This document shows positions 7,194-47,675 of a stretch of DNA of 64,000 nucleotides, piece by piece (position 1 is the stretch's first letter; every line of letters begins with the position of its first letter). Position numbers and translations under genes: made by a program. The stretch covers positions 4,288,001 to 4,352,000 of the forward strand of contig CBDFLE010000006.1 in NCBI GenBank assembly GCA_965248925.1. The letters run 5' to 3'. Below the pieces are notes generated by a model. It had not been told where the DNA came from, ran no database searches, and saw only the letters and a list, made by a program, of their open reading frames with translations. This stretch comes from Candidatus Multivoradales bacterium (GTDB lineage: Bacteria; Acidobacteriota; Thermoanaerobaculia; Multivoradales; J023).

Positions 7194-7891
7194 GTGGTGC
7201 GTTTGGTGCGGGCAGCCCGAATCCAGCCTCTGACCGAGTTGATCAGCATCACCCGGTTGGCGCTGAAGAGCATCTCGCGCGACAGCACGGCCTCGCGCAG
7301 CCGGCCGCGGTCGAGCAGCTCCTGGCGGTAGGTGCCGGGCAGCAGGCCACTGCTGGCGGCGGGGGTCAACCATTCGCCGTCGATTTCTAACGCCAGATTG
7401 GTACGGGTACCCTCGGTGAGTTCTTCGCGCTCGTTCCAAAGGGCCACTTCGTCGACCTCGGGCGAGCGGCCGCGGGCCTCGTCATAAGTCTGGCGCTGGG
7501 TGGTCTTGTGCTGCAAGAAAGGGTCTTCGGAGGACACAGCGCGGTCATCCAAAGTCACTGTCCAGGGCCGCTGGCTGTGGCTGGCGAGGGGCTCGGCCGT
7601 GATCTCATGGTTCCCTCCGCTGGCGACCACCAGACGTACTCGATGGGCCTTTGCCGGTAGCTCGCGCGAGACCTCAGCGAGGTCTGCCCGCAGGTCGCTG
7701 AGGACGGCCGCGAAGTCGAAATAGCGGGCCGAGTCCATCAATCGGCGGAGATGGCGCTCGAGTAGAAAATAGCCGGTGCGCGGTCGCCACAGCAGGGTCT
7801 CCAGGAGTTTGAAAGACGTGCCGGTCTCGGCGCTGGGCTTGGTTTCGATCACGCTGTTTGGGTTACGACGGTAGCCTGAGAATCGCTGCAC
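7190..7891 (-). CDS. Aminotransferase class IV (4-amino-4-deoxychorismate lyase-like); start may be GTG 7852
   Basis: LLETL...HLRRL..SA.YF, HKTT.R..Y, NEREELTEG...N, SGLLPGT.R, INSVRG. Confidence 0.85.
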   Translation of the reverse strand: MQRFSGYRRNPNSVIETKPSAETGTSFKLLETLLWRPRTGYFLLERHLRRLMDSARYFDFAAVLSDLRADLAEVSRELPAKAHRVRLVVASGGNHEITAEPLASHSQRPWTVTLDDRAVSSEDPFLQHKTTQRQTYDEARGRSPEVDEVALWNEREELTEGTRTNLALEIDGEWLTPAASSGLLPGTYRQELLDRGRLREAVLSREMLFSANRVMLINSVRGWIRAARTKRTT

Positions 7892-9164
7892 AGCCCCCGT
7901 CGGGTCGATTGCGCAGCTCTAAGGAGCCGCCGTGAGCCTCGGCGATCTGGCGGCAGAGTACCAGTCCTATGCCAGTTCCTTCCGGTTTGGTGGTGAAAAA
8001 AGGCACGAAAAGATTCTCGGTGCTAGACAGGCCAGGGCCTCGGTCAAGCACTTGCAACTGCAAATGGGCACCTTTCAGGCGCCAGACGACCGCCACTTCA
8101 CCTGCTGTTTCTGCTGCTGCTTCGACCGCATTCTTGACCAGGTTGATCAGCAGCTGTTCCAGTTGATCCGGGTCCGCTTGCAGGGCCAGGTCCGGGCCGC
8201 CGTCGAGACGTACTTGGCGGTTGGGTTCGAGTGCCAAGACCCGGTTCACCAAGGAAGCGACGGACGTGCGGCGGAGATGCGGCGAAGGCAATCTGGCAAG
8301 GCGCGAGTAGGCGGCGACGAAGCGATTCAGCGCTTCACTGCGCTGGGCGATGATGCGCAGGCCGCGCTGGGTGTCTTCGCGCCAGTCTGTCGGCAACTGA
8401 GCTCGGCGTAGCAGCGAAGCCAGGGTGGAGGCAGTGGACTTGATCGGTGCGAGGGAGTTGTTGAGTTCGTGGCTGAGTACTCGGATCAGTTTCTGCCAGG
8501 CTTGCCGCTCCTCGTCGCGCAACGCTTTCGACAGATCGGTCAATACCACCAGCTGGTGTGGCAGCCCACCTTCGCGAAAAGCGCCGCGACGGCTCTGCCA
8601 ACGGCCGGAGCCGCCGGCAAAGGAGCGCTCAAAGGTGCGCACCGCCTCGCCGGTCAGGCAGTCGTCGAGCCCGAGTTCTTGAGCGGTGTGATTTAGCAGC
8701 TGCTCGCGGCGGCGAGCCAGCAAGCGCTCACCGGCGCGGTTGACCAACCGTAGCACCTGTCCCTCGTCGAAGGTGAACAGGGCTACGTCGACCTCGCTGA
8801 TCACCCGTTCGAGCAGTTGGGCCGCGTCGACCGCGCGGAAGCGCTGGCGGCGCAGGATGTCGCCGAGATGATTGACCTCGACCATCACCTCGCCGAGCGC
8901 GTCGCGCGGCCCAGGACTGTTGGCGCGGATCGAATAGTCGCCTTCGCGCAGGGCTTCGATCAGGTTGGCCAGGGTTCGCAGTGGTTTGATGGTGCGCTCG
9001 CGGGCGGCCAGCGCGCAGCCCAACCAACAGCTGCCGACCACCAACGCCACGGTCCAGACCAGCCGCGGTGGATAGGAGCCTGACCACAGCAAGTAGGTCG
9101 AGACCACCGCTCCTGGCAAGCCGGCGCCCAAGGCGAGAAGGAAAATGCGTCTTTGGTGGGTCAT
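7863..9164 (-). CDS. Membrane sensor histidine kinase (NtrY-like)
   Basis: Two TM helices, H-box LIRVLSHELNNSLAPI, N-box INLVKNA, D-x-G-x-G, FVPFFTTK, GTGIGL. Confidence 0.93.
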   Translation of the reverse strand: MTHQRRIFLLALGAGLPGAVVSTYLLWSGSYPPRLVWTVALVVGSCWLGCALAARERTIKPLRTLANLIEALREGDYSIRANSPGPRDALGEVMVEVNHLGDILRRQRFRAVDAAQLLERVISEVDVALFTFDEGQVLRLVNRAGERLLARRREQLLNHTAQELGLDDCLTGEAVRTFERSFAGGSGRWQSRRGAFREGGLPHQLVVLTDLSKALRDEERQAWQKLIRVLSHELNNSLAPIKSTASTLASLLRRAQLPTDWREDTQRGLRIIAQRSEALNRFVAAYSRLARLPSPHLRRTSVASLVNRVLALEPNRQVRLDGGPDLALQADPDQLEQLLINLVKNAVEAAAETAGEVAVVWRLKGAHLQLQVLDRGPGLSSTENLFVPFFTTKPEGTGIGLVLCRQIAEAHGGSLELRNRPDGGCAAILRLPS

Positions 9165-10576
9165 CGGCTCGCCGACAGGCCGAGCTTGTCTAACCGCCGG
9201 TAAAGCGCGCTGCGGCTCAAGCCGAGAGCATGGGCGGCCTCGGTAACGTTGCCCTCGGTGCGCTCCAGACCGCGTTCGATCAGCACCCGTTCGGCTTCCT
9301 CGAGGGTCATCTCGTCGAGTCGTTTGGTCTCCGACGCAGCGGTCAAGCCGAGATCGGCGGACTCGATCTGGGGGCCGGCGGCCATCAACACCGCTCGCTC
9401 CAGCACATGGCTGAGCTCACGAACATTCCCCGGCCAGGAATGCTCTCGCAGCTGGGCCAAGGCGCCGGCGGCGAGTTGCCGGATAGGTTGGCGGTAGCGT
9501 TGGGCGTGCTGGGCCAGGAAATGCTCCGCCAGCGGCCGCAGGTCGGCACTTCGCTCGCGCAGCGGTGGCAGGTGGATCTGCACCGTCTTGAGGCGGAAAA
9601 GCAAATCGCGCCGGAAGCGGTCAGCCGCCACTTCGGCCTCGATGTCGGCATTGGTGGCGGCGATGATCCGGGCGTCGGAACGCAGCGTCTTGGAGGAGCC
9701 GACGCGCTCGAATTCGCCACTCTCCAACACCCGCAACAATCGGGTCTGCTGCGATGGTCGGATGTTGGCGACCTCGTCGAGAAATAGCGTTCCGCCGCTG
9801 GCCAGCTCGAAGCGACCCACCCGGTCACTCTTGGCGTCGGTGAAGGCGCCGCGAACATGGCCGAAGAGTTCGCTCTCGAACACCGTCTCCGCCAACCCCC
9901 CCAGGTTGACTGTGATCAGCGGACCCGTTCGTCGGCGGGAGAGCTGATGCAGGGCTTTCGCCAGCAAGCTCTTGCCGGTGCCGTTCTCGCCGGTCAGCAG
10001 TACGTTGGCGTCGGTAGGGCCGATACGCTCAAGAAGTTCCAGGACTGGCGCCATGGCGGCCGAGCCGGCGATCAGGTCAGGATGAGGAGCGCCGCGTAGC
10101 AGGCGGTTCTCTGCTTCCAGGCGGACGCCGCGGCGTAGGGTGCGGGCGACCTCGGTCTGGATACGTAGGATGCTGACCAGACGCTCGTTGTCCCACGGTT
10201 TTTCAACCAGGTCGCGAGCGCCACGACGTATTGCCTCGACCGCCAGACCGACGCTGGCCCAGGCGGTCATTACCACCACCGGGAGTTCTTGATCGAGCGC
10301 TTGAATGCGGTCGAGCAAGTGCAGCCCCTCTTCGCCAGAGGTGGTGTCGCGAGTGTAGTTAAGGTCGATCAGCACGACATCGAACTCGACTTCGCCTATG
10401 CGCTCGATCAGGGCGTTGGGAGAGGCCACGGTGACTATGGAGAAGCCTTCGGTCTTGAGCAGCAAGCGGAGCGACTCGCGGATGTCGTCTTGATCGTCGG
10501 CCACCAACACCCGCGGCGCAAGGGTGGATCGTCGACTGCTGCTGGCGGCGCTCTTGGTGGGGTTGGGCTGGTTCAT
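9161..10576 (-). CDS. Sigma54-dependent NtrC-family response regulator
   Basis: Receiver (VADD, DLNY), Walker A GENGTGKS, ESELFGH, GAFTDA, WPGNVREL, Fis-type HTH. Confidence 0.95.
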   Translation of the reverse strand: MNQPNPTKSAASSSRRSTLAPRVLVADDQDDIRESLRLLLKTEGFSIVTVASPNALIERIGEVEFDVVLIDLNYTRDTTSGEEGLHLLDRIQALDQELPVVVMTAWASVGLAVEAIRRGARDLVEKPWDNERLVSILRIQTEVARTLRRGVRLEAENRLLRGAPHPDLIAGSAAMAPVLELLERIGPTDANVLLTGENGTGKSLLAKALHQLSRRRTGPLITVNLGGLAETVFESELFGHVRGAFTDAKSDRVGRFELASGGTLFLDEVANIRPSQQTRLLRVLESGEFERVGSSKTLRSDARIIAATNADIEAEVAADRFRRDLLFRLKTVQIHLPPLRERSADLRPLAEHFLAQHAQRYRQPIRQLAAGALAQLREHSWPGNVRELSHVLERAVLMAAGPQIESADLGLTAASETKRLDEMTLEEAERVLIERGLERTEGNVTEAAHALGLSRSALYRRLDKLGLSASR

Positions 10577-10699
10577 TGCGGGCTCCTGCGGCGTTGTTCG
10601 CCGCGGCCCATTCTACAGCCGTGGAGCGGTGGAGGGAGGACCGACCAACCTGGAGCTGGTCGGTCCCTATTCTGAGGAAATGTGGAAGCTTTGTTGTAG

Positions 10700-10873
10700 G
10701 CCGGCAGCGGCTGGGCAGCGGTGGAGTCCCGTGAAGGCCATCTCTAAGATGATGCTCCCGGCGGTGCCTTGATCGTCGCTCGTGATGGCTGACTTGATGC
10801 GGTGCGAGGATCGAGGCTTCCTGATGTCGTCTGGCCTTCACGGAACTCAACCGCTACCGGTGCCGCTGACAGA
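10700..10873 (-). ncRNA. Putative sigma54-dependent hairpin ncRNA (unit C)
   Basis: 27-bp stem, 10832-10858 with 10714-10740 (2 G-U pairs and 1 mismatch on the minus strand), directly downstream of a -24/-12 box. No credible ORF. Confidence 0.6.
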
Positions 10874-10884
10874 AGTGGTTTAGA

Positions 10885-10899
10885 GCAAGCGCGGTGCCA
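10885..10899 (-). promoter_or_regulatory. Sigma54 promoter TGGCACCGCGCTTGC
   Basis: Matches TGGCAC-N5-TTGC with GG-N10-GC spacing. Confidence 0.8.
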
Positions 10900-11017
10900 G
10901 GCTCTACGAGCGAGTAGCAGGTTTTTCCAAGGATTCTTGTATTTGCTGTAGCAAAAGGGGTTGTAGCTTTGTCTGATTTTCGGAGAGCAGCCTGACCTGG
11001 TCTGAAGCCGGCTTTTC

Positions 11018-11078
11018 TGTCCGCCAGCGGTCAGTCAGGTGACCCGCAGCGGTCAACCGCTGACCGCTCGCGAGGTCA
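11018..11078. promoter_or_regulatory. Enhancer (UAS) palindromes TGWCCG-N4-CGGWCA for a sigma54 activator
   Basis: TGTCCGccagCGGTCA 11018-11033 and TGACCCgcagCGGTCA 11040-11055, plus a degenerate copy at 11061-11078; ~120-140 bp upstream of the -24 box. Confidence 0.6.
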
Positions 11079-11089
11079 AGGCCAGGGCG

Positions 11090-11555
11090 GTTGCAGAAGG
11101 CAGCGGCTGTGGAGAAAGTAGGTGGCGAGCGGAAAGGGAGAGGCGAGAAGTAGCCGGGGATGGCGACCGAGAGATCGCTAGCGGTAGACTCCGCGAAGAT
11201 CAGTTAATAGAGGATGGACCGGCCGCCTGAGCTGACGTGGTGTGCTGACTTAGAGGATGCTCAAGCGGCGCTGTTGAAAAGATCTTCGCGGAGCCCTGTC
11301 GCCGGCAGTGCTCGTTTGACCGGCAGCGACGGAGATCCGTGAAGGTCGTCCCGATGTCGATGTCCGCTCGCGAGGTCGCCGCCTTGGTGCGCTGACGTGA
11401 TGATAGGCGACTCTCGCGATCTACCGTGGTACTCGGTGGTGAGCCGGGTTCGCCGGGCCGCCCTTCGTGGTGCAGGACTGGATGTCTAGGTCGACCCGTG
11501 GCAGTTTGCTGCGAGACCTTCAAGGAACTCCGTCGCTACTGGTTCCGTTCACTCT
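11090..11555 (-). ncRNA. Putative sigma54-dependent ncRNA with two homologous long hairpins (units A and B)
   Basis: 29-bp stem 11515-11543/11319-11347. Second stem 11281-11306/11177-11201 with a perfect 13-bp core and inner stem 11259-11269/11222-11232. Both stems are homologous to unit C. The 3' end is a guess. Confidence 0.6.
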
Positions 11556-11566
11556 CCAGAACTAAT

Positions 11567-11581
11567 GCAAGCTAGATGCCA
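11567..11581 (-). promoter_or_regulatory. Sigma54 promoter TGGCATCTAGCTTGC
   Basis: -24/-12 consensus with GG-N10-GC spacing. AT-rich IHF-like tract (minus-strand TTTCAATTGTTTA) at ~11621-11633. Confidence 0.8.
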
Positions 11582-11683
11582 GCTTGGCGGACATTGCCAT
11601 GTCAGCCTGATATTTTGCTGTAAACAATTGAAACTAAGACATTTACTGAATTGTTCAGAAAAAAATAACCTGGCTTGTACTGG

Positions 11684-11739
11684 TGACCGTGGGCGGTCGC
11701 TGCTCGCTAGCGGACAGCCTGGGTGACCGTTAGCGGACA
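11684..11739. promoter_or_regulatory. Enhancer (UAS) palindromes TGWCCG-N4-CGGWCA
   Basis: TGACCGtgggCGGTCG 11684-11699, TGCTCGctagCGGACA 11701-11716, TGACCGttagCGGACA 11724-11739. Confidence 0.6.
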
Positions 11740-11778
11740 GCGGCGGGCGGGCGGTGGTTGAACCGGGACTAGGGAAGC

Positions 11779-13695
11779 TCAGCTAGGGCCGGGGAGCAGG
11801 CCGAAGCGTTCCATGCGGCGGCGCAGCTTCTGTCTCGATATGGCGAGCAGCTTAGCTGCTTGCACCTGGTTGCCGTCGCAGCGCCGTAGCGCCTCGCGTA
11901 CCGCGCGTTGTTCGAGATCTTCTAGCTCGAGGGAGTCCAGTGCTAGTAGTTCTGGACGCGGCTCGCCGTCGCTGGCCGCAGGCGGTGAGGCAGACAGGTC
12001 GAGGGCGCGCGCCGCAGAATCTCCCAGGACGGGGCGAGGGGCGTTCTCGAGCACTGCTTTCGACAGCATCGAAGAGTCGATGGCGGCACCGTCGTGACAG
12101 AGATAGACCAGGCGGCGGACCTCGTTTTCGAGTTCGCGGACATTGCCAGGCCAAGGGAAGTCCACCAGCTGGCGCAGAGCACGCACGGTCAGGCCGCGCA
12201 CCCGCTTGCCGAGGGAACGCGAGCAATCGCGCAGAAAATGCTCGACCAACGCTGGGATGTCCTCGGGCCGATCACCGAGGGGCGGAACGTCGAGCACCCA
12301 CCCGGCCAGGCGGTAGTAGAGGTCGGCGCGAAAGCTGCCGGCCTCAATGCGCTTGGCCAGTTCTTGGTTGGTGGCGGCTAGGACCCGCACATCGATCTTG
12401 ATCGGTCGCATGCCGAGGGGGGTGACCTCTTTCTCCTGCAAGGCTCGCAGCAGCTTGGCCTGAAGACCGGCCGACATGTCGCCGATCTCATCGAGAAACA
12501 GGGTGCCGCCGTCGGCTTCTTGGAAGCGGCCACGGCGTTTTCTGACCCCGGAGGCAACCCCTTCGCCGATGCCGAAAAGCTCTGATTCGAGCAGTTCGGC
12601 AGGAATGGCGGCGCAATTGATAGCCACGAAGGGCTGTTGCCGACGGGGCGAAGAGCGGTGCAGAATCTGCGCCAGATACTCCTTGCCGACGCCGGTGTCG
12701 CCGATGATCAGCACCGGCAGGTCGCCGCGGGCCAGGCTCTCCATCAGGCGGTAAATCCGGCGCATCGCCGCCGACTGTCCGAAGACGAATCCCGCCGGCA
12801 CCACCAGGCTCGGAAAACCGGTGTTCACCGTCGGCTGGTGAACTTCGCCGGGCTGTGGCCGGAAGCGGTCCACAAGCCTCACCACCAGGCGTAGCAGGGG
12901 TTCGCTCTCGCTGCGACCGGCGAAGCTGCCCCACAATGCCAAGGCCAGGGGGGCGGCGTCTTGAGGGGTTAGCAAGACCAGGCTGAGGGGCGCTCCGGCG
13001 GTCGGGTTGAGCAATTCGAAAGCGATAGCATCGGCCTTGGTGGTGGCGTCGGCGAAAGCATGCGGCAGCGCCTCTTGCAGGCTTTCCATGGCGTCGTCGT
13101 CGACCTGGCCGGCGGCGGCGAGGACGATAGGCCGCTCCTCGGCCGGTAGCTCTAGCAGACAGGTGCCACGCAGTTGTAACTCGCTGATCAGCAGCCGCAC
13201 AACGGCGCTGAAATGGCCATCCGGACCCTCCGGCATCTCGGTCACCAATGCTTCGACCAGTTGCAGCCAATGTCGGGTGAGGGCGTCGGCTATGCTGCTG
13301 GTGACCAGCGGTGTCTCGCGTCGCAGTACCGCGGAACTCCGGTCGAGGGGTGGGTAGTCAAGAGCGATGGCGAGTTCGGCGTCTTCGCTGTCCAGCTCTT
13401 CAAGAGTCAGCTCGACAGGGCCAAAACGCAGCTGATCGCCCGGTCGGGCGGTAGCCTGCTCGATGCGTCGCTCATTGAGGTAGGTGCCGTTCTTGCTGCC
13501 CAGATCTTCGACCTGCAACTGGTCGATGCCGAGTGTCAGCCGGGCATGCTGCCTGGAGACGCCAGCGGCACTGAGCACGATTTCGTTCGACGGCAAGCTG
13601 CCGACGCCGTTGGTTGAGCCGAGGACGAAAGAATGCTCACTATCTTGCACTAGGCCGCGCAGGCAGTAGCTGATCTGTGAGGTGGTTGTCGCCAT
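11779..13695 (-). CDS. FHA-domain sigma54 enhancer-binding protein
   Basis: FHA motifs (VSRQHA, DLGSKNGT), AAA+ motifs (GDTGVGKE, ESELFG, GVASGV loop, WPGNVREL), C-terminal Fis HTH. Confidence 0.92.
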   Translation of the reverse strand: MATTTSQISYCLRGLVQDSEHSFVLGSTNGVGSLPSNEIVLSAAGVSRQHARLTLGIDQLQVEDLGSKNGTYLNERRIEQATARPGDQLRFGPVELTLEELDSEDAELAIALDYPPLDRSSAVLRRETPLVTSSIADALTRHWLQLVEALVTEMPEGPDGHFSAVVRLLISELQLRGTCLLELPAEERPIVLAAAGQVDDDAMESLQEALPHAFADATTKADAIAFELLNPTAGAPLSLVLLTPQDAAPLALALWGSFAGRSESEPLLRLVVRLVDRFRPQPGEVHQPTVNTGFPSLVVPAGFVFGQSAAMRRIYRLMESLARGDLPVLIIGDTGVGKEYLAQILHRSSPRRQQPFVAINCAAIPAELLESELFGIGEGVASGVRKRRGRFQEADGGTLFLDEIGDMSAGLQAKLLRALQEKEVTPLGMRPIKIDVRVLAATNQELAKRIEAGSFRADLYYRLAGWVLDVPPLGDRPEDIPALVEHFLRDCSRSLGKRVRGLTVRALRQLVDFPWPGNVRELENEVRRLVYLCHDGAAIDSSMLSKAVLENAPRPVLGDSAARALDLSASPPAASDGEPRPELLALDSLELEDLEQRAVREALRRCDGNQVQAAKLLAISRQKLRRRMERFGLLPGPS

Positions 13696-14665: not shown

Positions 14666-14792
14666 GGCACTCTCAGGCTGAGCTCCGACGTGGCAGAGGA
14701 GCCCGCTGGACGAGCCCGCTCCAATATCCAGCGGCTACCGATTCTCGCCTGAGATCATCAGCCACGCCGTGTGGCTCTGCTACCGTTCAGCC
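14666..14792 (+). pseudogene. IS6-family left-end remnant
   Basis: GGCACTCTCAGGCTGAG resembles IS6 inverted repeats (GGCACTGT...). 14730-14786 translates SGYRFSPEIISHAVWLCYR, matching the IS6 transposase N-terminus pattern (RFPxEII.HAVWLY.RF). Confidence 0.6.
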
Positions 14793-15613
14793 GCCGGTTC
14801 TTCTATCATCACGCCTAGCTCATCGAGCAAGGTGCCGGTGGCGCGCTGAAAAGCGATCAGTTGGCGGCGGTGATTGGTTACCGCGACGACCTCGCGCTGG
14901 CGGGCTCCGGCCAGATCTTCTTGGATGCGTAGCAGGGTGAAACTTGACGATAGGCCATTTTCGTAACGTTTTTGCTCGGCTTCCAGGTTGCGGCGGGTCA
15001 GTTCGCTGGCTAGTTGGGCGGAGTCGATCCGCTGCTGCGCGGTGAGCACCGCGCGGGCGGTCCGACGGACGTTGGCGCGGATCGCCCGGTGCAGTTCTTC
15101 TAGTTCTAGCTGTCCGCGCTCGACGGCCAATTCGGCGCGAGCGTGACGCGCTCGCGCCGCACGATTGCGTAGCGGGTACGACAGGGTCAGGCCAACATTC
15201 CAACCGTCAAAGTCGCCATCGAGCACTTGCTGGATGGCCCCGGCATTGCCTTCTTGTTCGAGCACCAGGTCTGGATCGTTGGGGGTGCCGCTGATGCCAC
15301 TAAATTGGTAGGAAGCATCCAGGTCGAGCTGTGGCCAGCGCTGGCGACGCTCGACTCGCTGGTCGAGGTGGCGGTTCTCCAAGGCCAGCTGTTGGCTGAG
15401 TACCTCGGGCCGTAGCTTGAGCGCCTGTGCAATAGCTGATTTGGTGTCAATCTCGACAAAGCTCGCCTTGGGCTCGGAAATTGGTAACAGCTCTGCATCC
15501 CACAGCGGGCCGGGTTCGAAGCTGAGGAGTTCGCGCAGCAGATCCTGTTGATCGTCGACCAGAGCAGCGAATTGGATGGTGTCTTCCTCGCGCTGGGCAA
15601 CTCCGGCCTGACT

Positions 15614-18144
15614 CCAGAACTCCTGACATACCCTTTTTCTCAAATGTCCGGTTGAGCCTCTCCGGAGGTGTTCCGAGGCCCTGGGAAGGCCAGGCTCCGG
15701 GGTGGCGCCTTCTTGATCGCGAACCGCATCCGTAGCTCGGTGCCGGGGAAGTGGGTGGCGGTAGCGTTGAGTTCTTCGCAGACGGCGGCGATCGCCGCCG
15801 TCTTGTGGGGAGAGCTGAGCGGGTCGATGGAAAGGAGCAGCACGGTGTCGGTAACCTCCATATCGCCGCCGGCCGCGAAAGCGCTTTGGATCAGGGTGCG
15901 TCCCTCCTGCTCGGTGCGGCGGTAGTGGGGTGATAGGAGCCGGAGAAGATCACCTTCGGCCTGGTAGGCGACCATCTTGAGAATATCGGTGAGGTGCTTG
16001 CGCTCGACGGACAGCTTGATGACATCCGCTTCGACGACCTCTTGGACGGGGACGCGGACGGGGAGGGTCGCGCGCTGGTTCTCGAGTTCGGTGATCTGCT
16101 CTATCGCTGCCCGGACCCTGGCGGAGATGGCGGCGTTGGCGATCTTGAATCCGCGCATCGTGCGCCGCCGATCCTCGCGGTTTTCAAGAGCAGCGATCCC
16201 GATGTGGGCCCGGAGCTGCTCGAGATGTGCGTGAGCTTTGCGCAGCTCTGCATTGATCTTGCCGCGCTCGGGATTCGGCACATCGCGGGCGGCGTCCGCT
16301 GGCTCGGTGCCATAGTCCACCAGGGCATCGAGTGCGAATTCTTCGCGCAGGTATTTGAAGAAGTTCTCTTGCCTCCAACGATCGAACATGCGGTAGGCGA
16401 CCTCGAGTGTGGAGAGGTCGCGGCGGGAGGTGATGATGGACGTCTGGTGGCCGTTGTCGCAGAGGCGGGTGACCTGGCGCAGGTACAGCCGCTTGCGCTT
16501 CTTCCTCGGGCCATACTCGAGGTAGATACGCTGATCGGCGAGGAGGTACTCGAGCTTCCGACCGTGGATCGTGTCCTTGATCTGCCCGAACTTGCTCAAC
16601 GGCACCGGACGAAAGGGGGCCTTTCGGTATGTGAGGATGTCGAACTTCTTGGCGATGAGCTTCGCAAACAGCTTCGGGCTCCAACCCCCACGGTCGAAGA
16701 CGACGGTGACTCGCCGGTCTCCGAGTAGCTTTCGTACCTCTTCGAGAATGAGGGGAAGCATCGTCGCAAGCCCCTTGTTGGCCTCGGTGGGGACCACGAA
16801 GAGAGGCTCGCTCTCAGCATCGTTGACCCAGTAGTCGGTGGTGGCCGGCATCGCGATCCGCATCCGCGCTACGTGTGTCTTGGGAATCTCTCGGCCACCG
16901 TGGTAGGCGCGCACATGCCCGTCCACGTAGAGGAAGCCCATGGCATGGCCCCTGGTGGCGACCCGGCGCTGAGCGAGGGCGCGACCGAGATCCGCGGCCA
17001 GGCCATGCGCGGCCAGCCGAGCGAGCTTGTTGCGCAAGGTTTTCACTTCCGGCGCTCGGTCGAGCCCGAGAAGCTGACCCAAATGCCGGGGTGAGCGCTC
17101 CTTGAGCCCTTCGGGTCGCTTGACCCGCAACAGTGCCATCAGCAGCAGGGTTACCAGAGTGGTGCGCAGCCCATAGAAGGCCGGCCCGATGCTGCCGTAC
17201 AGCTCCTGCGCGATGGAGAGCACGCCGCTGTCCACCAGGGCGGGAATCGCCAGCAGAGCACCGGCGCCCGGTAGCTGGGTCGCCGCTCCGAAGATCGGCG
17301 CCGCATCATCGAGGAATCCCAGCCTCGCCAGCAGCCGATCGCTGGCGCGATCCGCTGGATCGAGGTCCAGCGAGAGGGGAACCTGATCTTGCTCGGACGC
17401 AGAAGCGGACAGTTTTGGGTCCGCAGCCGCTGGGTCACCGCCACCCTCAGCGTCGAGCGCAAGATCCGCAGTTTTCAGGGGGCCGTCGACCTGCTGCTCA
17501 TCAGAGGCGGACAGTTTTGGGTCCGCACTCTCGAAGGGCATCGTCATCTGCACTACCGACCGCTCTTTCCAGCCCAGGCGCTTGGCGAGCTTGCGAACGG
17601 CCTTCTCATCGATGCCCAGCCGCCGGCCAATCTCGCGATTCGACACACCCTCGGCCTTCCAGCCGTTGACCGCGTCCAGGCGGCCCTGCGCTACCCGAGA
17701 CTGACCCCGGGGAAAACCGCGCGGCCGGCCCAGAGCAGCCAGCCCACCTTCTTCGAAGCGGCGCTGATTCCGGCGCACAGTCCGCACATCACAAGCGAAC
17801 GCAAGGGCCACCTCGCGTTGCTGTGCCCAGCCCAATTCAACGAGACTCACCATCGCGTGGGCCTCGCCTGTCCTGTCGCCGGCAGCGAAGTGAGCGAGCG
17901 GCATGCCGCTGACCACCACCACCCGATAGCCGCCCCTCTGCTGGAGGCGGCAGCGGTCGTTGATCACCACAACCCCATCGGGGACCCCGGCGTGGTCTGG
18001 GAACAGGACGGTGTGCTCGCTCGTCAGTGCCATGCTCGATCATGCCTCGGCACCGAAAAAAGCGGACAGTTTTGGGTCCGCACCACCTCTGAGGGGCGGT
18101 CCTGTGTTTTCAGAGGGTTAGGAGGGGTAGGTCAGGAGGTCTGG
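15614..18144 (-). mobile_element. IS element copy 1 (2531 bp, 20-bp imperfect terminal IRs, 3-bp ACT flanks)
   Basis: Ends CCAGAACTCCTGACATACCC and GGGTAGGTCAGGAGGTCTGG; ACT at 15611-13 and 18145-47. Confidence 0.93.
15640..18033 (-). CDS. DDE transposase with N-terminal HTH (797 aa)
   Basis: HTH motifs, YVDGH, VFDRGG, MFDRWRQENFFK (IS4-superfamily-like R-x3-E-x2-F-K). Confidence 0.9.
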   Translation of the reverse strand: MALTSEHTVLFPDHAGVPDGVVVINDRCRLQQRGGYRVVVVSGMPLAHFAAGDRTGEAHAMVSLVELGWAQQREVALAFACDVRTVRRNQRRFEEGGLAALGRPRGFPRGQSRVAQGRLDAVNGWKAEGVSNREIGRRLGIDEKAVRKLAKRLGWKERSVVQMTMPFESADPKLSASDEQQVDGPLKTADLALDAEGGGDPAAADPKLSASASEQDQVPLSLDLDPADRASDRLLARLGFLDDAAPIFGAATQLPGAGALLAIPALVDSGVLSIAQELYGSIGPAFYGLRTTLVTLLLMALLRVKRPEGLKERSPRHLGQLLGLDRAPEVKTLRNKLARLAAHGLAADLGRALAQRRVATRGHAMGFLYVDGHVRAYHGGREIPKTHVARMRIAMPATTDYWVNDAESEPLFVVPTEANKGLATMLPLILEEVRKLLGDRRVTVVFDRGGWSPKLFAKLIAKKFDILTYRKAPFRPVPLSKFGQIKDTIHGRKLEYLLADQRIYLEYGPRKKRKRLYLRQVTRLCDNGHQTSIITSRRDLSTLEVAYRMFDRWRQENFFKYLREEFALDALVDYGTEPADAARDVPNPERGKINAELRKAHAHLEQLRAHIGIAALENREDRRRTMRGFKIANAAISARVRAAIEQITELENQRATLPVRVPVQEVVEADVIKLSVERKHLTDILKMVAYQAEGDLLRLLSPHYRRTEQEGRTLIQSAFAAGGDMEVTDTVLLLSIDPLSSPHKTAAIAAVCEELNATATHFPGTELRMRFAIKKAPPRSLAFPGPRNTSGEAQPDI

Positions 18145-27228: not shown

Positions 27229-29551
27229 ACGCTGGAGTCAGGTAGAGGGTCTCTTTCTGCGCTGTGAGGGCCTGACGAAGGATGCCCAGCGCCAGCTGCT
27301 GGAGGGCGCCTGCGGCGATCAGCCAGATCTCCGTCAACAGGTCGAAGGGATGCTGGCGGGTGACCGGCTCGGCACCGATTGGATGGGGCGGATGATCCGC
27401 CAAGCGCTGGTTCAGGAGCCCGAGGCCCGACCACGGCGAATCGGCCGCTACCGTTTGCTCGGTGAACTCGGTCGCGGTGGTCTGAGCACCGTTCACCTGG
27501 CCGAACGGGCCGATGATCAATACCGTCAGCGGGTTGCCCTCAAGCTGGTGCGGCGGGGCTTGGAGAGTGATGAGACGCTGCGCCGGATGCGTCGCGAACG
27601 GCAGATCCTGGCCGATCTCGAACACCCCAACATCGCCCGCTTGCTCGATGGCGATGCCACTGCCGACGGCGTGCCCTATTTCGTCATGGAGCATATAGAG
27701 GGCCAGCCGATTGCCGCCTACGCCGAACAGCACCGGCTGTCTCTCGACAGTCGCTTACGGCTGGTGGAGCAGGTTTGCGCGGCGGTGCATCACGCTCACC
27801 AGCGCTTGGTGATCCACCGTGACATCAAGCCCTCGAACATTCTGGTGACTGCCGAGGGCGTGCCTAAGTTGCTCGACTTCGGCATTGCCAAATTGTTCGA
27901 TCCGGGGGCCGAAGCCAGCGCCACGGTTACCGGCCAAGGATGGATGACCCCTGAGTACGCCAGCCCCGAGCAGGTACGCGGGGAGGCGCTGACCACCGCG
28001 ACGGATATCTATTCCCTGGGAGTGCTGCTCTACCAGTTGCTTACCGGCATCTCACCGCAGCAAGTCCAAGGGCGGAAGTTGCGGGAGTTGGAAGAAGCCA
28101 TCTGCGAGATGGAGCCACCGCGGCCATCGCTAGCGGTGCGGCAGCTCGAGAGAGAATCGCTGGCGGGCCTGGAGCATTCCACCAGAAAGCTCGCTGAGCG
28201 TCTGAGTGGTGATCTGGACAACATCATCCTCAAAGCGATGCGCAAGCAGCCGGCTGACCGCTATTCTTCGGCCGAGCGGCTGGCGGAAGACCTGCGCCGC
28301 TATCGCCTGTCGCTGCCGGTCAGTGCCCGGCCAGCCACCTGGGGTTATCGGGTGGGGCTCTTTGTCCGCCGCCAGCGGAAGGTGGTGATCGGCGGTCTGT
28401 TGGCTGCTGCTGCGCTGCTAGCGGCGCTGATCGCCGTCGGTTGGCAGGCGCGGGCCGCCCATCGCCAGCGGCACGAGGCGGAGGCTACTCTGGACCTGCT
28501 GTTCAGGATCTTCGACGTGGATGGCCTCAAAGAGAAGATCGATATGCACCAGCTGGTTGAGCGAGGAATTGAGGCGGCTGAGGAGATGGACACTCGGCGT
28601 CCGGCCACTCAGGCCGAACTCTTCGACTTCTTTGGTGGTTTGTACATTGTGCTGGGCACTTACGACGATGCGGGCCACGCTTTCGAGCGGTCCGTCGAGG
28701 TGGGCCGGCAGCTTTTTGCCGCGGGTGACCTTCGGTTGGCAGATGCGCTCAATAGTCTCGGTGAGGTGCGCTTTTGGCAAAGGGATCTGGGCGCGGCTCA
28801 GCAGGCTTTTGAAGAAGCGCTGGAGATCCGCCGCCAGGCGTTGGGCGACCTCCACCTAGACACCGACGAGATCGTGATCAACCTCGGCACCCTGGCGCGC
28901 CACGCCGGTGATCTGGAGCGCGCGAAGTCGCTGTTGACGAACGCCATCGAGCGCCACCCGCAAGCGTTGGCAGAGGGCCACCCTGACCTGCTTTCGGCGT
29001 TGGAGAGCTTGGGATTAGTGTACAGCCTGCAAGATGACTTCGATCGCGCTGAGCAGCAAGTCCGGCGTAGTCTTGAGTTGCGCTTGGCGACCCGTGGCAG
29101 CGATCACCCCGAGGTGGCGATCACCCACGGTCAGCTAGCCGCCATCCTGCACCACCAGGGTGAACTGGAGGCGGCGGAGAGGCATTTCACTGAGACTCTG
29201 AGAATATTGCGATTGGCTTACGGCGATCACCACGTCAGGCTGGTCTCAGTGTTGATCAACCTGGCGGCCTTGCGCCAGGAGCAGGGCCGGATCGAGGAAC
29301 AGGAGAAGGTGCTGCGTGAGGCTTTGGAGGTCGCCGAAGAGAACTACAGCGAAACCCACCCGCGGCGGATTGATGCCGTGCTCCTCCTGGCCCGGTTGCT
29401 GGCAGAGACCGACCGCTGCGGCGAGGCCCGGCCGCTGTTGGCTCAGGCCCTCGGCACCCTTCGAGAAACTGAAGAAGAAGACTCGCCCCAGCTGTCGTGG
29501 AGTGAGTCTCTACTGGCTTCCTGCACAGCGTTGCCTTTACCTTCGGGCTGA
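27218..29551 (+). CDS. Hanks-type Ser/Thr kinase with TM helix and TPR repeats
   Basis: GRGGLSTV, VALK, HRDIKPSN, DFG, TPEYASPEQ, then a TM helix and TPRs. Confidence 0.93.
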   Translation: METERWSQVEGLFLRCEGLTKDAQRQLLEGACGDQPDLRQQVEGMLAGDRLGTDWMGRMIRQALVQEPEARPRRIGRYRLLGELGRGGLSTVHLAERADDQYRQRVALKLVRRGLESDETLRRMRRERQILADLEHPNIARLLDGDATADGVPYFVMEHIEGQPIAAYAEQHRLSLDSRLRLVEQVCAAVHHAHQRLVIHRDIKPSNILVTAEGVPKLLDFGIAKLFDPGAEASATVTGQGWMTPEYASPEQVRGEALTTATDIYSLGVLLYQLLTGISPQQVQGRKLRELEEAICEMEPPRPSLAVRQLERESLAGLEHSTRKLAERLSGDLDNIILKAMRKQPADRYSSAERLAEDLRRYRLSLPVSARPATWGYRVGLFVRRQRKVVIGGLLAAAALLAALIAVGWQARAAHRQRHEAEATLDLLFRIFDVDGLKEKIDMHQLVERGIEAAEEMDTRRPATQAELFDFFGGLYIVLGTYDDAGHAFERSVEVGRQLFAAGDLRLADALNSLGEVRFWQRDLGAAQQAFEEALEIRRQALGDLHLDTDEIVINLGTLARHAGDLERAKSLLTNAIERHPQALAEGHPDLLSALESLGLVYSLQDDFDRAEQQVRRSLELRLATRGSDHPEVAITHGQLAAILHHQGELEAAERHFTETLRILRLAYGDHHVRLVSVLINLAALRQEQGRIEEQEKVLREALEVAEENYSETHPRRIDAVLLLARLLAETDRCGEARPLLAQALGTLRETEEEDSPQLSWSESLLASCTALPLPSG

Positions 29552-44879: not shown

Positions 44880-47675
44880 TCAGTTTTTGCGGACGCGAAA
44901 CCGCTCAGCCTCGGCCGGCCGGCCGGTGGCCTGGTAGTAGTCGATCAGTCGTTTGCGAGCACTATGGAGGTATTTCGAAGCGGCGGGGTTCGCATGCTCG
45001 GCTTGTAGCTGGTAGCCATCGAGCAGAAACCGCTCGGCTTCGTCGACTCGTCCGGTTCTCAACAACAGCTCACCATGGATGCTCTGTGCCGCACCGCGGT
45101 CGGCTTCGGTGGAGAAATCACCGAAGGGTGGCTGGCTGTGTTGGAGAGCCTTTTCGTAGTGCTTTTCTCGCAGATAAAAAGAAGCGAGGTTGCGGTGGGC
45201 TTGTGCCACCTGCAAGCTGCCTGGGCGGAAGACTTCGAGTTGATAACTCAGGATGCGTTTGAAGTAGCCCTCGGTGGCAGCAGGATCCTCCAGGTCGTAG
45301 CTGACCACCGCCAAATTTAGCAGGATACCGGAAATTTCTGACGGGTTGCCTTCGAGGCCTTCGAATAGCTCAAGTGCCTCTTCATAGCCGTTTCTGGCTT
45401 CTTTCAGCAATTCGTCATCGCCACTCTGCTTCGCCAGCCTCTTGGTTGTCAGAGCTAGGTTGTTCAGGAACGAAGCGCGTTTCTCTGTCCGTGCATCGAC
45501 GAAGAAAGGGCGAGCTTGATTCAAAGTTGTGATCGCCTCTTGGAGTCGCCCTTGCCGGCTGTAGATCGTCGCCAGAGTGGTGAGATCCGCGCCTAGGTCG
45601 ATGTGGTATCGGCCGAGGGCTTCACGATGGAGATCATAGGCCCGCAGTGAAAGCTTCTCTGCTCGTCTCCAACCGCCATGCTCGATTAGCGCGCGGGCAA
45701 CCCGATCCAGGCTGCGGGCGGTCAAGGCGTGATCGGGAACCAATTGTTGGTGAATTTCTAGAGCTTCTTCGAACTCTGCTAGAGCCTTCTCGTGCTGACC
45801 TTGTGTGAGGTGAACCTCCCCCAGATTTTCCAGGTTCTTGGCCAGAGCCAAGCGCGTATCTTCAGAATCGACGCGATTTCGACGCACCTCAACTACCTGG
45901 CGCAGTAGGGACTCACCTTGGTTTAGCTCCCCCTGGTCTACCAATGCCTGGCCGAGGTAGGTTTGGGCGTTGATCAGTTGATTTGCGTAGTCTTCGCCAC
46001 CGGCCTGCAACGGGTCTATCGCTGCGCTGAGTAGGGGGACGGCTTCACTCAGGAGGTTGAGACGCTGGAGGACGAATCCCAGGCTGGCTTGGGTGGAGTT
46101 GGTCTTGGGATGGCGGGCTCCCAGCTCGGCCCGGCGGGTGTCGAGAATCTCGCTGTACAGCTGGCGGGCGTCCTCGAGGCTTTTGAGTCTGCTGTAGGTG
46201 CTTGCCACCAGGGTTAGCAGGTCGGCGCGCAGCAGGGGTCGGTCGGCCAAATCCTGGCGCAGATCTACCGCCAACACATCGAGTCTAACGCTTGTGGGAT
46301 TGTAGGGGTCGTTACTAAACACTGCTTGCCGGAGGAGATCTTGGACCTTCGAGCGGGTGTCCAGTTCGCGGGCGCGGCGAGCTTCGCTGAACGCTACCCA
46401 ACCGAGCAGCACAACACCCAGCACCGCGGCCGCCACTGGTAGCCAGAAGCGGCGCAGGAAGCGGCTGGAGCGATAGGCGAAAGTCTGTGGCCGGGCCAGG
46501 ATGGTGCGGCCGTCGAGGTGGCGGCGCAGGTCTTCGGCGAGTCGGTCGACCGTGGGATAGCGCCGCTCGGGATCCTTCTCTAACGCTTTTAGAACGATGG
46601 TGTCGAGATCGCCGCGCAGCCGGCGATGCAGCTGCTTCGGGTCGACCCCACGGTGTTGGCCGATGATCACCGGGTCGGTTTTCGAACCGCGCTCATTCGG
46701 GTCTCGAGCGGCGCGCAGGCGGCGAACCGCGGTCGAGGGCCGGTTGGGAGATTGGTGAGTGATCGATCGCCCAAGTCCCTCCGGGGTGCTGTTGTTGAGG
46801 TGGTACGGGCGGGCGCCGGTGAGTAGTTCATAGAGCAATACTCCGAGTGAGTAGACATCGCTCGAAGTGGTCACTGGTTCACCGAGGATCTGCTCTGGGC
46901 TAGCGTAGTCCGGGGTCATCGGCCGGTGTTCGGCGAGGGTCAGGAGGCGACTTGACTGACTTTCGTCGGCCAGCAGTTTGGCGATGCCAAAATCCAGCAG
47001 CTTGGGCTCGCCGTTGGTGGTGACCAGGATGTTCGAGGGCTTGAGATCGCGGTGCACTACCAGGTTGCGGTGGGCAAGCGCCACGGCGGAACAGACCTTG
47101 AGGAACAGCCGCAGCCGCTCGCCGATGGTGAGTCGTTGGCCATCGCAGTAGCTGTCGATGGGCTGGCCTTCGACATGCTCGAGGACGAAGTAGGGCAGCC
47201 CGTCCTCAGTGCTGCCGCCATCGAGCAGGCGGGCGATGTGGGGATGCTCGAGGCGAGCCAAGATCTGCCGCTCGTTCTCAAAACGGCGGACGATCTCATC
47301 GGTGTCCATGCCTCGTTTGAGCAGTTTTAGCGCTACCTGCTGTTCGAATCCTTCCTGGCGCTCGGCCAGGTAGACCGCTCCCATGCCGCCCTGGCCGAGC
47401 TTTCGGCGCAGCTGGTAGACGCCGATCCGGCGGCCGATAGCGACATCCTCTGTTGTCTCGTCATTCGTGGTCTGACTGGGAGAGCCGAGGCGAATCACCG
47501 GTTCTTCGATGAAGGTTTCGGCGGCATCTTCCTCGTCAAGTAGGGAGTCGACTTCATCAAACAGCAGGCGATCACCGGCGCAGCGGTCGCGTAGCCAGTC
47601 TCGGCGTTCGGCCGGCTCGACCGCTTCGGCCTCGAATAGCACCTGTTTGATCTCTGACCAGCGCTCTTGATCCAC
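44880..47675 (-). CDS. Hanks-type Ser/Thr kinase with TM helix and TPR repeats
   Basis: GQGGMGAVY, HRDLKPSN, DFGIAK, TPDYASPEQ, TPRs. Confidence 0.93.
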   Translation of the reverse strand: MDQERWSEIKQVLFEAEAVEPAERRDWLRDRCAGDRLLFDEVDSLLDEEDAAETFIEEPVIRLGSPSQTTNDETTEDVAIGRRIGVYQLRRKLGQGGMGAVYLAERQEGFEQQVALKLLKRGMDTDEIVRRFENERQILARLEHPHIARLLDGGSTEDGLPYFVLEHVEGQPIDSYCDGQRLTIGERLRLFLKVCSAVALAHRNLVVHRDLKPSNILVTTNGEPKLLDFGIAKLLADESQSSRLLTLAEHRPMTPDYASPEQILGEPVTTSSDVYSLGVLLYELLTGARPYHLNNSTPEGLGRSITHQSPNRPSTAVRRLRAARDPNERGSKTDPVIIGQHRGVDPKQLHRRLRGDLDTIVLKALEKDPERRYPTVDRLAEDLRRHLDGRTILARPQTFAYRSSRFLRRFWLPVAAAVLGVVLLGWVAFSEARRARELDTRSKVQDLLRQAVFSNDPYNPTSVRLDVLAVDLRQDLADRPLLRADLLTLVASTYSRLKSLEDARQLYSEILDTRRAELGARHPKTNSTQASLGFVLQRLNLLSEAVPLLSAAIDPLQAGGEDYANQLINAQTYLGQALVDQGELNQGESLLRQVVEVRRNRVDSEDTRLALAKNLENLGEVHLTQGQHEKALAEFEEALEIHQQLVPDHALTARSLDRVARALIEHGGWRRAEKLSLRAYDLHREALGRYHIDLGADLTTLATIYSRQGRLQEAITTLNQARPFFVDARTEKRASFLNNLALTTKRLAKQSGDDELLKEARNGYEEALELFEGLEGNPSEISGILLNLAVVSYDLEDPAATEGYFKRILSYQLEVFRPGSLQVAQAHRNLASFYLREKHYEKALQHSQPPFGDFSTEADRGAAQSIHGELLLRTGRVDEAERFLLDGYQLQAEHANPAASKYLHSARKRLIDYYQATGRPAEAERFRVRKN

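Follow-up and report, generated by a model that had tools for sequence, protein, structure and literature searches.

Several small RNAs (sRNAs) of Proteobacteria, including GlmY/GlmZ, CrcZ and NrsZ, are transcribed in a sigma54-dependent manner, and some of them act by protein sequestration. To judge from its design, the closest analogue of the system presented here is Pxr of Myxococcus. In the accessible text of PMC5568312, Pxr is described as an intergenic, lineage-restricted RNA that is situated downstream of the sigma54 activator gene nla19 and is apparently transcribed from a sigma54 promoter; it is present as a single copy in most species, while Cystobacter carries a tandem set of three diverged paralogs, every one of which has a sigma54 promoter to itself. 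The same text gives paralog numbers for the Qrr1–5 RNAs of Vibrio (LuxO/sigma54), and Qrr1 can be activated by LuxO and by SypG, according to the accessible part of PMC10162802. The present analysis concerns a 1.2 kb gap between two genes in a 64,000-nt stretch of DNA from Candidatus Multivoradales bacterium (Acidobacteriota; Thermoanaerobaculia; GenBank assembly GCA_965248925.1, contig CBDFLE010000006.1, positions 4,288,001 to 4,352,000), the whole of which is referred to below as the window. An initial annotation of this DNA proposed that sigma54 promoters drive three hairpin RNAs within the gap and named Pxr as a precedent; the comparison proved apt, as Pxr likewise lies downstream of a gene for a sigma54-dependent regulator and has tandem paralogs in Cystobacter (PMC5568312, accessible text).

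The gap consists of 1202 non-coding bases that separate the gene for an FHA-domain activator of sigma54 from an operon encoding an NtrC-type response regulator and a kinase (7863-10576, minus strand). Folding and comparison with relatives revealed three tandem hairpin units in this gap, situated in the minus-strand order A, C, B (10700-11555). It is considered quite likely that the array represents tandem, diverged paralogs of an sRNA family that is sigma54-dependent and has not been described before. According to this explanation, the copy that is syntenic in related genomes would have been multiplied in tandem in this genome, and the products would then have diverged. Units A and B would have kept their own enhancer and promoter, and all three units would have lost the U-tract and most of the 5′ motif found in the rest of the family. 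An activated enhancer-binding protein would bind the dyads of the two enhancers and fire both promoters.

In comparison with Pxr, the array A-C-B corresponds to the tandem paralogs of Cystobacter, and the single syntenic copy in relatives of the present genome to the single copy of Pxr in most species. The two systems differ in several respects. All of the Cystobacter paralogs have their own promoter, whereas unit C has none; no match in sequence or structure to Pxr was found at the Rfam gathering score, or at E values up to 10 over the region; and Pxr is depicted in the accessible text of PMC5568312 as three stem-loops, while the new family has one long closing helix that would double as a terminator. 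The activator neighbouring Pxr is, in that text, a response regulator and not an FHA protein, the phylum is a different one, and dispersed extra copies with the same enhancer, as seen in the new family, are not described for Pxr there. The resemblance to the Qrr system is that a genome has multiple sRNA paralogs, that all of them have a sigma54 promoter and putative sites for one and the same activator, and that one of them adjoins an activator gene. The Qrr RNAs differ in having another fold and no Rfam match here, and in the new family two activator genes flank the sRNA, one of them with an FHA domain. GlmY/GlmZ, CrcZ and NrsZ share with the new family the use of sigma54 promoters and activator sites to drive non-coding RNAs, but these too gave no Rfam match and are unrelated in sequence and phylum. 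These comparisons indicate a new family of a known kind, which is a member of neither the Pxr nor the Qrr family.

The RNA family had not been recognized in the initial annotation, and database searches gave the same result. No match to any Rfam 15 family, a collection which we take to include Pxr, Qrr, GlmY/Z, CrcZ and 6S, was obtained in the window at the gathering score; nothing relevant was found in region 10300-12000 at E values up to 10; and no Rfam match covered the RNA in 12 homologous loci. One relative (locus L033) contains a near-threshold match to Acido-Lenti-1 at 2043-2086 on the plus strand (34.2 bits, gathering score 37); the sRNA of this locus is encoded on the minus strand, and the match lies on the other strand, approximately 400 nt away and upstream of the promoter of that sRNA. 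A literature search turned up no report of any sRNA under sigma54 control in Acidobacteria or Thermoanaerobaculia. To our knowledge, hardly any regulatory RNAs of Acidobacteria have been reported, and the Thermoanaerobaculia are largely uncultured lineages.

The promoters that had been proposed are present at full consensus. Promoter A (TGGCAT-N5-CTTGCA, TGGCATCTAGCTTGCA, 11581-11566) and promoter B (TGGCAC-N5-CTTGCT, TGGCACCGCGCTTGCT, 10899-10884), both on the minus strand, contain the GG and GC elements of sigma54 promoters in the spacing TGGCAC-N5-TTGC(A/T). They are the only two matches to TGGCAYNNNNNYTGCW on both strands of the 64 kb window, compared with a chance expectation of 0.33. From the usual sigma54 spacing, transcription would be expected to start near 11555 (A) and 10873 (B). 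Upstream of both promoters there are TGWCCG-N4-CGGWCA dyads on the minus strand, at the matching offsets that the initial annotation had indicated. Enhancer A (11684..11739) contains dyads TGTCCGCTAACGGTCA (11739-11724) and TGTCCGCTAGCGAGCA (11716-11701), which end 143 and 120 nt ahead of promoter A, as well as a third, weaker dyad, CGACCGCCCACGGTCA (11699-11684), that had previously gone unlisted. Enhancer B (11018..11055) contains dyads TGACCGCTGCGGGTCA (11055-11040) and TGACCGCTGGCGGACA (11033-11018), which end 141 and 119 nt ahead of promoter B. With a dyad cluster defined as at least two dyads, each with up to one mismatch, 15-50 bp apart, enhancers A and B, both situated 100-160 nt upstream, were the only clusters in the whole 8 Mb genome. 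It is apparent from an alignment of the two cassettes that they are collinear, with the dyads, the -24/-12 boxes and the hairpin arms kept and the spacers diverged. Unit C has neither a sigma54 promoter nor dyads of its own.

The three predicted RNAs all lie on the minus strand. In unit A (11320..11555), arms at 11542-11515 (5′ arm, containing AGCGACGGAG) and 11347-11320 (3′ arm, containing CUCCGUCGCU) enclose 167 nt. Unit C (11177..11307), a hairpin situated directly behind unit A, is supported by its fold and by two covariance models (R2 and R3, see below), and unit B (10700..10873) is a long hairpin whose 5′ arm begins at 10860 and whose 3′ arm ends near 10715. Predicted folding energies for A, C and B were -101.7, -62.2 and -86.0 kcal/mol, with z values, relative to shuffled sequence, of -3.2, -4.9 and -6.3, respectively. 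As had been reported, the 5′ arms of A (from 11542) and B (from 10860) begin 25 nt past the -12 boxes, are identical at 22 of 28 positions and, with their partners, show three compensatory pair changes (A-U/G-C, C-G/U-A, U-A/C-G). The third, promoter-less unit that had been postulated after the first is present as unit C, and it is probably co-transcribed with unit A. The enclosed regions had been regarded as unrelated, and this view has to be revised: units B and C share AAGUCAGC and CACG(A/U) apically and ACA(U/G)C past the stem, and the interior of unit C aligns to the family consensus in a covariance model of the family.

DNA similarity between the 1.2 kb region and 40 related genomes was nil, a 26-nt chance match being the only one obtained, and relatives were therefore sought through the FHA activator protein. 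The gap to the best paralog within the present genome (1e–150) was used as the orthology line, and orthologues were identified in 13 genomes of the same taxonomic family (52-56% identity; E values from 1e–175 to 1e–209). Synteny of the RNA with FHA activator genes had been suggested as a check, and it was observed in nine orthologous loci, in which the RNA lies between the FHA activator gene and the NtrC-type regulator gene. These loci share a common order: dyads, sigma54 promoter, the motif GAGAGCGGGCUCC approximately 14 nt past the promoter, one long hairpin, GGAGC with a U-tract, and the NtrC-type regulator gene. Dyads were present upstream in eight of the nine; the dyad in L005 has two mismatches. 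It is apparent that one canonical copy is syntenic with the window array, with the FHA-activator gene on one side and the NtrC-type regulator/kinase operon on the other.

Three covariance models were constructed from these sequences and their homologues: R1 from 7 closely related syntenic copies, R2 from 16 members with the window sequence excluded, and R3, a broader model, from 29 members. Among 24 genomes of the taxonomic family, R1 detected the RNA in 14, with extra copies at unrelated places and up to four copies per genome, and the promoter was carried by all 25 of the R1 loci that were inspected. R3 identified it in 13 of 21 genomes of the family, versus none of 129 genomes of the order's 11 other families. 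A pattern scan for the promoter plus the 5′ motif, in 185,579 genomes (one per prokaryote species), returned 28 loci, of which R1 confirmed 26; 22 of these came from metagenome-assembled genomes (MAGs) that carry the label Acidobacteriota or Thermoanaerobaculia, and the other 4 from MAGs without a classification. The remaining two loci, one in Agromyces and one in a Gemmatimonadetes MAG, gave no match to the model and were rejected as chance occurrences. A weak extra model match (L208) showed neither the promoter pattern nor the 5′ motif and was also set aside. In 80 loci with an FHA-activator protein from a metagenome scan, the best protein identity was 45%, no close relative was present and the RNA was found in none. 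The search of related genomes with covariance models thus yielded a total, outside the window, of 30 homologous sense-strand loci in 15 genomes of one Thermoanaerobaculia family, to which, on these searches, the RNA family is confined.

Canonical genomes carry one to four copies, all with the same enhancer, which points to a small regulon of paralogous RNAs under one activator. The neighbours of the dispersed copies are unrelated to each other (trypsin-like, BamB-like, flavin monooxygenase, PhzF-like, PilT-like ATPase, HAD hydrolase and others). In two genomes of one genus (loci L009 and L011), the genes for the FHA activator and the NtrC-type regulator, in that order, are almost adjacent and have no sRNA in between; each of these genomes has four dispersed sRNA copies elsewhere.

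The anatomy of the family was determined from 29 aligned members. The promoter starts 23-26 nt ahead of the model start in all 29, and at least one dyad (up to one mismatch) was found within 260 nt upstream in 26 of them, versus none of 29 downstream control regions. A canonical member has two or three dyads approximately 100-250 nt upstream, and its RNA is 120-170 nt in length. The 13-mer GAGAGCGGGCUCC occupies RNA positions 6-18 (alignment A4); 11 of its 13 positions are invariant in the 29 members, and the other two differ in one or two members. This conservation is far above the needs of its pairing partner, and a small DNA palindrome, GAGC-GG-GCUC, is contained within the motif. The closing helix, of approximately 30 bp, is composed of three segments, the second and third with the consensus …GYGRYGGRG UUCCGCGAAGRCC … GGUCUUCACGGAA …, and it surrounds a G-poor interior with a second hairpin. 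A U-tract (at least five U in the 10 nt after GGAGC) follows the helix directly in 28 of the 29 members, so that the closing helix would double as an intrinsic terminator.

Covariation was assessed on a MAFFT alignment of the 29 members that was not fitted to any structure. For the 33-pair closing helix, 88.1% of the cells were paired, versus 81.3% in shuffled alignments (none of 500 reached 88.1%), and 17 helix pairs had changes on both sides, a result matched by 1 of 500 shuffles. Most members are predicted to form the inner hairpin as well, and double changes in it are seen in an alignment of seven sequences. No conserved open reading frame (ORF) was detected among the homologues: the longest sense ORFs ranged from 0 to 73 amino acids at varying positions, there was no common ATG, and three members had no start-to-stop ORF at all. 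It is pairing, then, and not a protein reading frame that the homologues conserve. The 30 homologous loci, the covariation, the fixed distance from the promoter, the shared dyads and the lack of a conserved ORF and of any Rfam match together support the original proposal of non-coding RNA genes that belong to an unrecognized family and have sigma54 promoters.

The 3′ ends of the RNAs bear on a different explanation, in which the hairpins function in cis as leaders or attenuators: transcription from the sigma54 promoters would serve the regulator/kinase operon, with the hairpin as a regulated terminator. The regulator gene has the same orientation as unit B and the syntenic copies, which lie approximately 60-300 nt ahead of it, and the absence of a U-tract behind each of the three window units makes read-through conceivable. 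A leader function is nevertheless improbable. The strong U-tract ends 28 of 29 canonical copies, units A and C precede another enhancer and promoter rather than a gene, and in 5 of 9 cases examined a dispersed copy and the gene downstream of it are convergent, which marks the dispersed copies as stand-alone genes and not leaders. In addition, the regulator gene in relatives has a -10-like box of the TAGACT type 5-8 nt ahead of its start codon, which points to a separate transcript and suggests that the regulator mRNA in those relatives is leaderless. The box reads TAGACT (or TATGCT or TAGTCT) in loci L091, L092, L093, L101, L103 and L104. In the window, TAGAAT is found at 10610-10615, 33 nt upstream of the regulator start codon, and the gene has a Shine-Dalgarno sequence, AGGAG, instead of a close-set box.

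It was of interest to determine whether the window units themselves belong to the family of stand-alone RNAs so defined. R2, run on the 64 kb window with filters off, placed unit B first (10715-10857, 28.4 bits, E 2.5e–5) and unit C second (11186-11296, 26.5 bits, E 7.2e–5); these are the sole sense-strand R2 matches in the 8 Mb genome, with B the best. When R3 was run against the 80 unrelated activator loci together with the window, the only matches were to unit B (25.7 bits), unit C (22.6 bits) and the antisense of B. R1 with filters off was marginal on the window (10.4 bits for unit C and 8.4 bits for unit B), and the broader models were needed for that reason. Unit A aligns with the family 5′ region, and it is tied to the family by the identity of its arm with that of B, by the 10-mers AGCGACGGAG and CUCCGUCGCU that it has in common with the syntenic copy L015, by its position and by its promoter spacing. 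The promoter spacing and dyads characteristic of the family are found at units A and B and not at C. The motif GAGAGCGGGCUCC is absent from the 5′ ends of the window units, the corresponding sequence having diverged to GAGAGUGAACGGAACC in unit A and CAGCGGCACC in unit B, and the 3′ GGAGC with U-tract is present in 0 of 3 window units versus 28 of 29 canonical members. With respect to these differences, the window units are best called diverged derivatives of the family.

Several observations weigh against assigning the array to a new family. Unit A was missed by R1, R2 and R3. The R2 matches to units B and C are local (model positions 19-147 and 28-138) and therefore do not include the 5′ motif or the GGAGC with U-tract. 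The A-C-B arrangement is known from one genome of the genus. When the partner columns of the closing helix were slid, 49-59% were paired, and the structure is favoured over these controls by having been derived from the same MAFFT alignment. Finally, both the family and the window units are known here from sequence alone.

The loss of the 5′ motif and U-tract, together with the expanded interior of unit A, which the models missed, and a transposase gene 4 kb away, could also be interpreted to mean that the window units have no present function and are either relics in decay or a mobile inverted-repeat element (MITE). This interpretation is very improbable, more so than a leader function, as the promoters are at full sigma54 consensus, both enhancers are intact and three compensatory pair changes separate A from B. 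The window helices also hold U-G pairs, which would be A-C mismatches on the opposite strand. A known repeat or MITE had been raised as an alternative in the initial annotation and was checked with blastn (E 0.01), which detected no second copy of the region in the 8 Mb genome and no dispersed copies. A pair of arm motifs approximately 90 kb away on the same contig was dismissed as a chance occurrence; no promoter accompanies it, and its surroundings appear to be coding sequence.

Returning to the array as a set of diverged sRNA paralogs, a simple scan of the RNA strand for intrinsic terminators gave no convincing candidate inside it. Two features on this strand may be relevant to termination. 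Behind unit C there is a C-rich, G-poor tract of 91 nt (11080..11170; 49% C, 16% G), a possible zone of Rho-dependent termination. Between unit B and the regulator gene, a GC-rich hairpin without a U-tract (10638..10667), which has no second copy in the genome, is a possible terminator.

The array is flanked by two candidate activators, both encoded on the minus strand. The FHA-domain sigma54 enhancer-binding protein (11779..13695, 638 amino acids) consists of an FHA domain, an unassigned middle region, an AAA+ sigma54-interaction domain and a Fis-type helix-turn-helix, with E values for the Pfam matches of 8.5e–16 (FHA), 2.9e–59 (Sigma54_activat) and 6.1e–11 (HTH_8). The NtrC-type response regulator and sigma54 activator (9161..10576, 471 amino acids) has Pfam domains Response_reg, Sigma54_activat and HTH_8, and the end of its gene is overlapped by that of a histidine kinase (7863..9164; HisKA, HATPase_c). 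Both rpoN and hfq were found in the host genome, as were at least 82 matches to Pkinase (Hanks-type Ser/Thr kinases) and 16 to sigma54 activators. Two of the kinase genes are inside the window, at approximately 27449-28282 (plus strand) and 46785-47417 (minus strand). Elsewhere in the window (14780-18033, minus strand), an OEP efflux ORF of 287 amino acids abuts a Transposase_29/helix-turn-helix gene of 797 amino acids, an arrangement that may represent the insertion of an insertion sequence beside a shortened efflux gene.

The initial annotation had the FHA activator driving the sigma54 RNAs. It is correct that the RNA units sit behind the gene for the FHA enhancer-binding protein, but the NtrC-type regulator is an equally placed candidate. 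An orthologue of the FHA activator was found in 13 of 15 sRNA-positive genomes, versus none of 8 sRNA-negative genomes. Orthologues of the NtrC-type regulator (60-68% identity) were found in 18 of 23 genomes of the family and are kept in 7 of the 8 sRNA-negative genomes. Upstream of these seven orthologues there was no model match, and no dyads were observed upstream of six of them, the seventh having only 57 nt of upstream sequence. Strict dyad sites numbered 37 in five sRNA-positive genomes, 14 of them at sRNA loci, and 26 in five sRNA-negative genomes, none of them paired; the totals were rejected as a discriminator, since 37 and 26 sites give no separation, whereas pairing and co-location with sRNA loci do separate the two groups. 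The phyletic co-occurrence moderately favours the FHA protein, which is considered slightly more probable than not to be the activator of the sRNA promoters. In locus L207 (approximately 783-816) two perfect dyads, 18 nt apart, were observed in an intergenic region where neither a sigma54 promoter nor an sRNA could be recognized close by; this activator may have a further target there.

The assignment to the FHA protein also has evidence against it. Co-occurrence tracks genera (positive in g1, g2, g5, g6 and g10, negative in g3, g4, g7, g8 and g9), and because it follows genus boundaries, one event of gain or loss may account for it. No clear FHA orthologue was found in two sRNA-positive genomes, and in one genome the FHA orthologue is on a different contig from the sRNA, which has a kinase gene on one side and the NtrC-type regulator gene on the other. 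This last genome, with its order kinase, sRNA, regulator, speaks for the alternative that the same RNA family is activated by the downstream NtrC-type response regulator, with its kinase, or by both proteins as an OR gate. This is a serious possibility, although it is held to be appreciably less probable than not. The sRNA is directly upstream of the regulator gene in the nine syntenic loci, and known sigma54 sRNAs adjoin activators of the response-regulator type, as Pxr does with nla19 (accessible text of PMC5568312); activation of Qrr1 by both LuxO and SypG (accessible part of PMC10162802) provides a parallel for two inputs. The persistence of the regulator in 7 of the 8 genomes devoid of both the sRNA and dyad clusters argues against it, as does the regulator gene's own -10-like box close to the start codon, which indicates that this gene is a separate transcription unit.

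If the FHA protein is the activator, the nature of its signal is of obvious interest. Throughout the orthologous group, the FHA domain has G-S/A-L at approximately residues 32-34 (window 13585-13600), while SRxH and NG are conserved. This position is presumably that of the canonical phosphate-contacting Gly-Arg of FHA domains, and with Ser or Ala there, phosphothreonine binding is not assured. The initial annotation had linked a non-coding RNA array to Ser/Thr kinase signalling: the array is borne out by the results above, and the kinase link is weakened by the Ser/Ala at the site of the arginine.

With regard to function, the chances are about even that the RNAs act in trans, probably by base-pairing through their G-poor, C/U/A-rich loops, with Hfq available in the cell. 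The unpaired interior is 32% A, 37% C and 10% G, compared with 28% G overall. Its commonest 5-mer, UCCUC, occurs in only 9 of 32 units, which counts against pairing through a common seed. A crude calculation of duplex energies was used to look for pairing between the interior of the sRNA and the start regions of the mRNAs for both neighbouring activators; the values were within 1.9 standard deviations of the locus background and gave no clear signal.

The same interior composition is of importance to another possibility, that the RNAs sequester a protein instead of pairing with mRNAs. Such a mode of action is known for 6S RNA, which acts on RNA polymerase, and for CrcZ, which acts on Hfq/Crc. 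An A/C-rich unpaired interior, the long, imperfect hairpin and the near-invariant 13-nt motif GAGAGCGGGCUCC, conserved beyond what pairing alone requires, are compatible with it, and multiple tandem copies would suit titration. Sequestration is nonetheless thought unlikely, since there is no match to 6S or any other Rfam family, no repeated protein-binding motif (the commonest 5-mer, as noted, being limited to 9 of 32 units) and csrA was not found in the host genome.

In this genome the enhancer occurs only at the two sRNA promoters, and a phosphothreonine signal would therefore pass directly into an sRNA burst. It can be put forward tentatively, as a proposal with rather less than an even chance of being correct, that the FHA activator is a dedicated switch with the RNA as its sole output, which would convert a phosphothreonine signal from a Hanks-type kinase, via sigma54, into such a burst, with the NtrC-type system as a second input to these promoters.

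The recurrence in a distant phylum of the design seen in Pxr and Qrr, in which an sRNA gene lies by a sigma54 activator gene and has undergone paralog expansion, suggests convergent evolution. A small circuit has been defined from its sequence only, comprising dyads, a sigma54 promoter, a structure backed by covariation, a terminator and variation in copy number. Models R1-R3 define the family and could serve as the starting point of a database entry and as probes for metatranscriptomes. With an activator gene on either side, one of the FHA type, signal integration at an sRNA promoter becomes testable in a heterologous reporter system. If the FHA protein is indeed a dedicated switch, this would be the first sRNA regulon under an FHA-type enhancer-binding protein, and the first regulatory RNA circuit to be defined in Thermoanaerobaculia.

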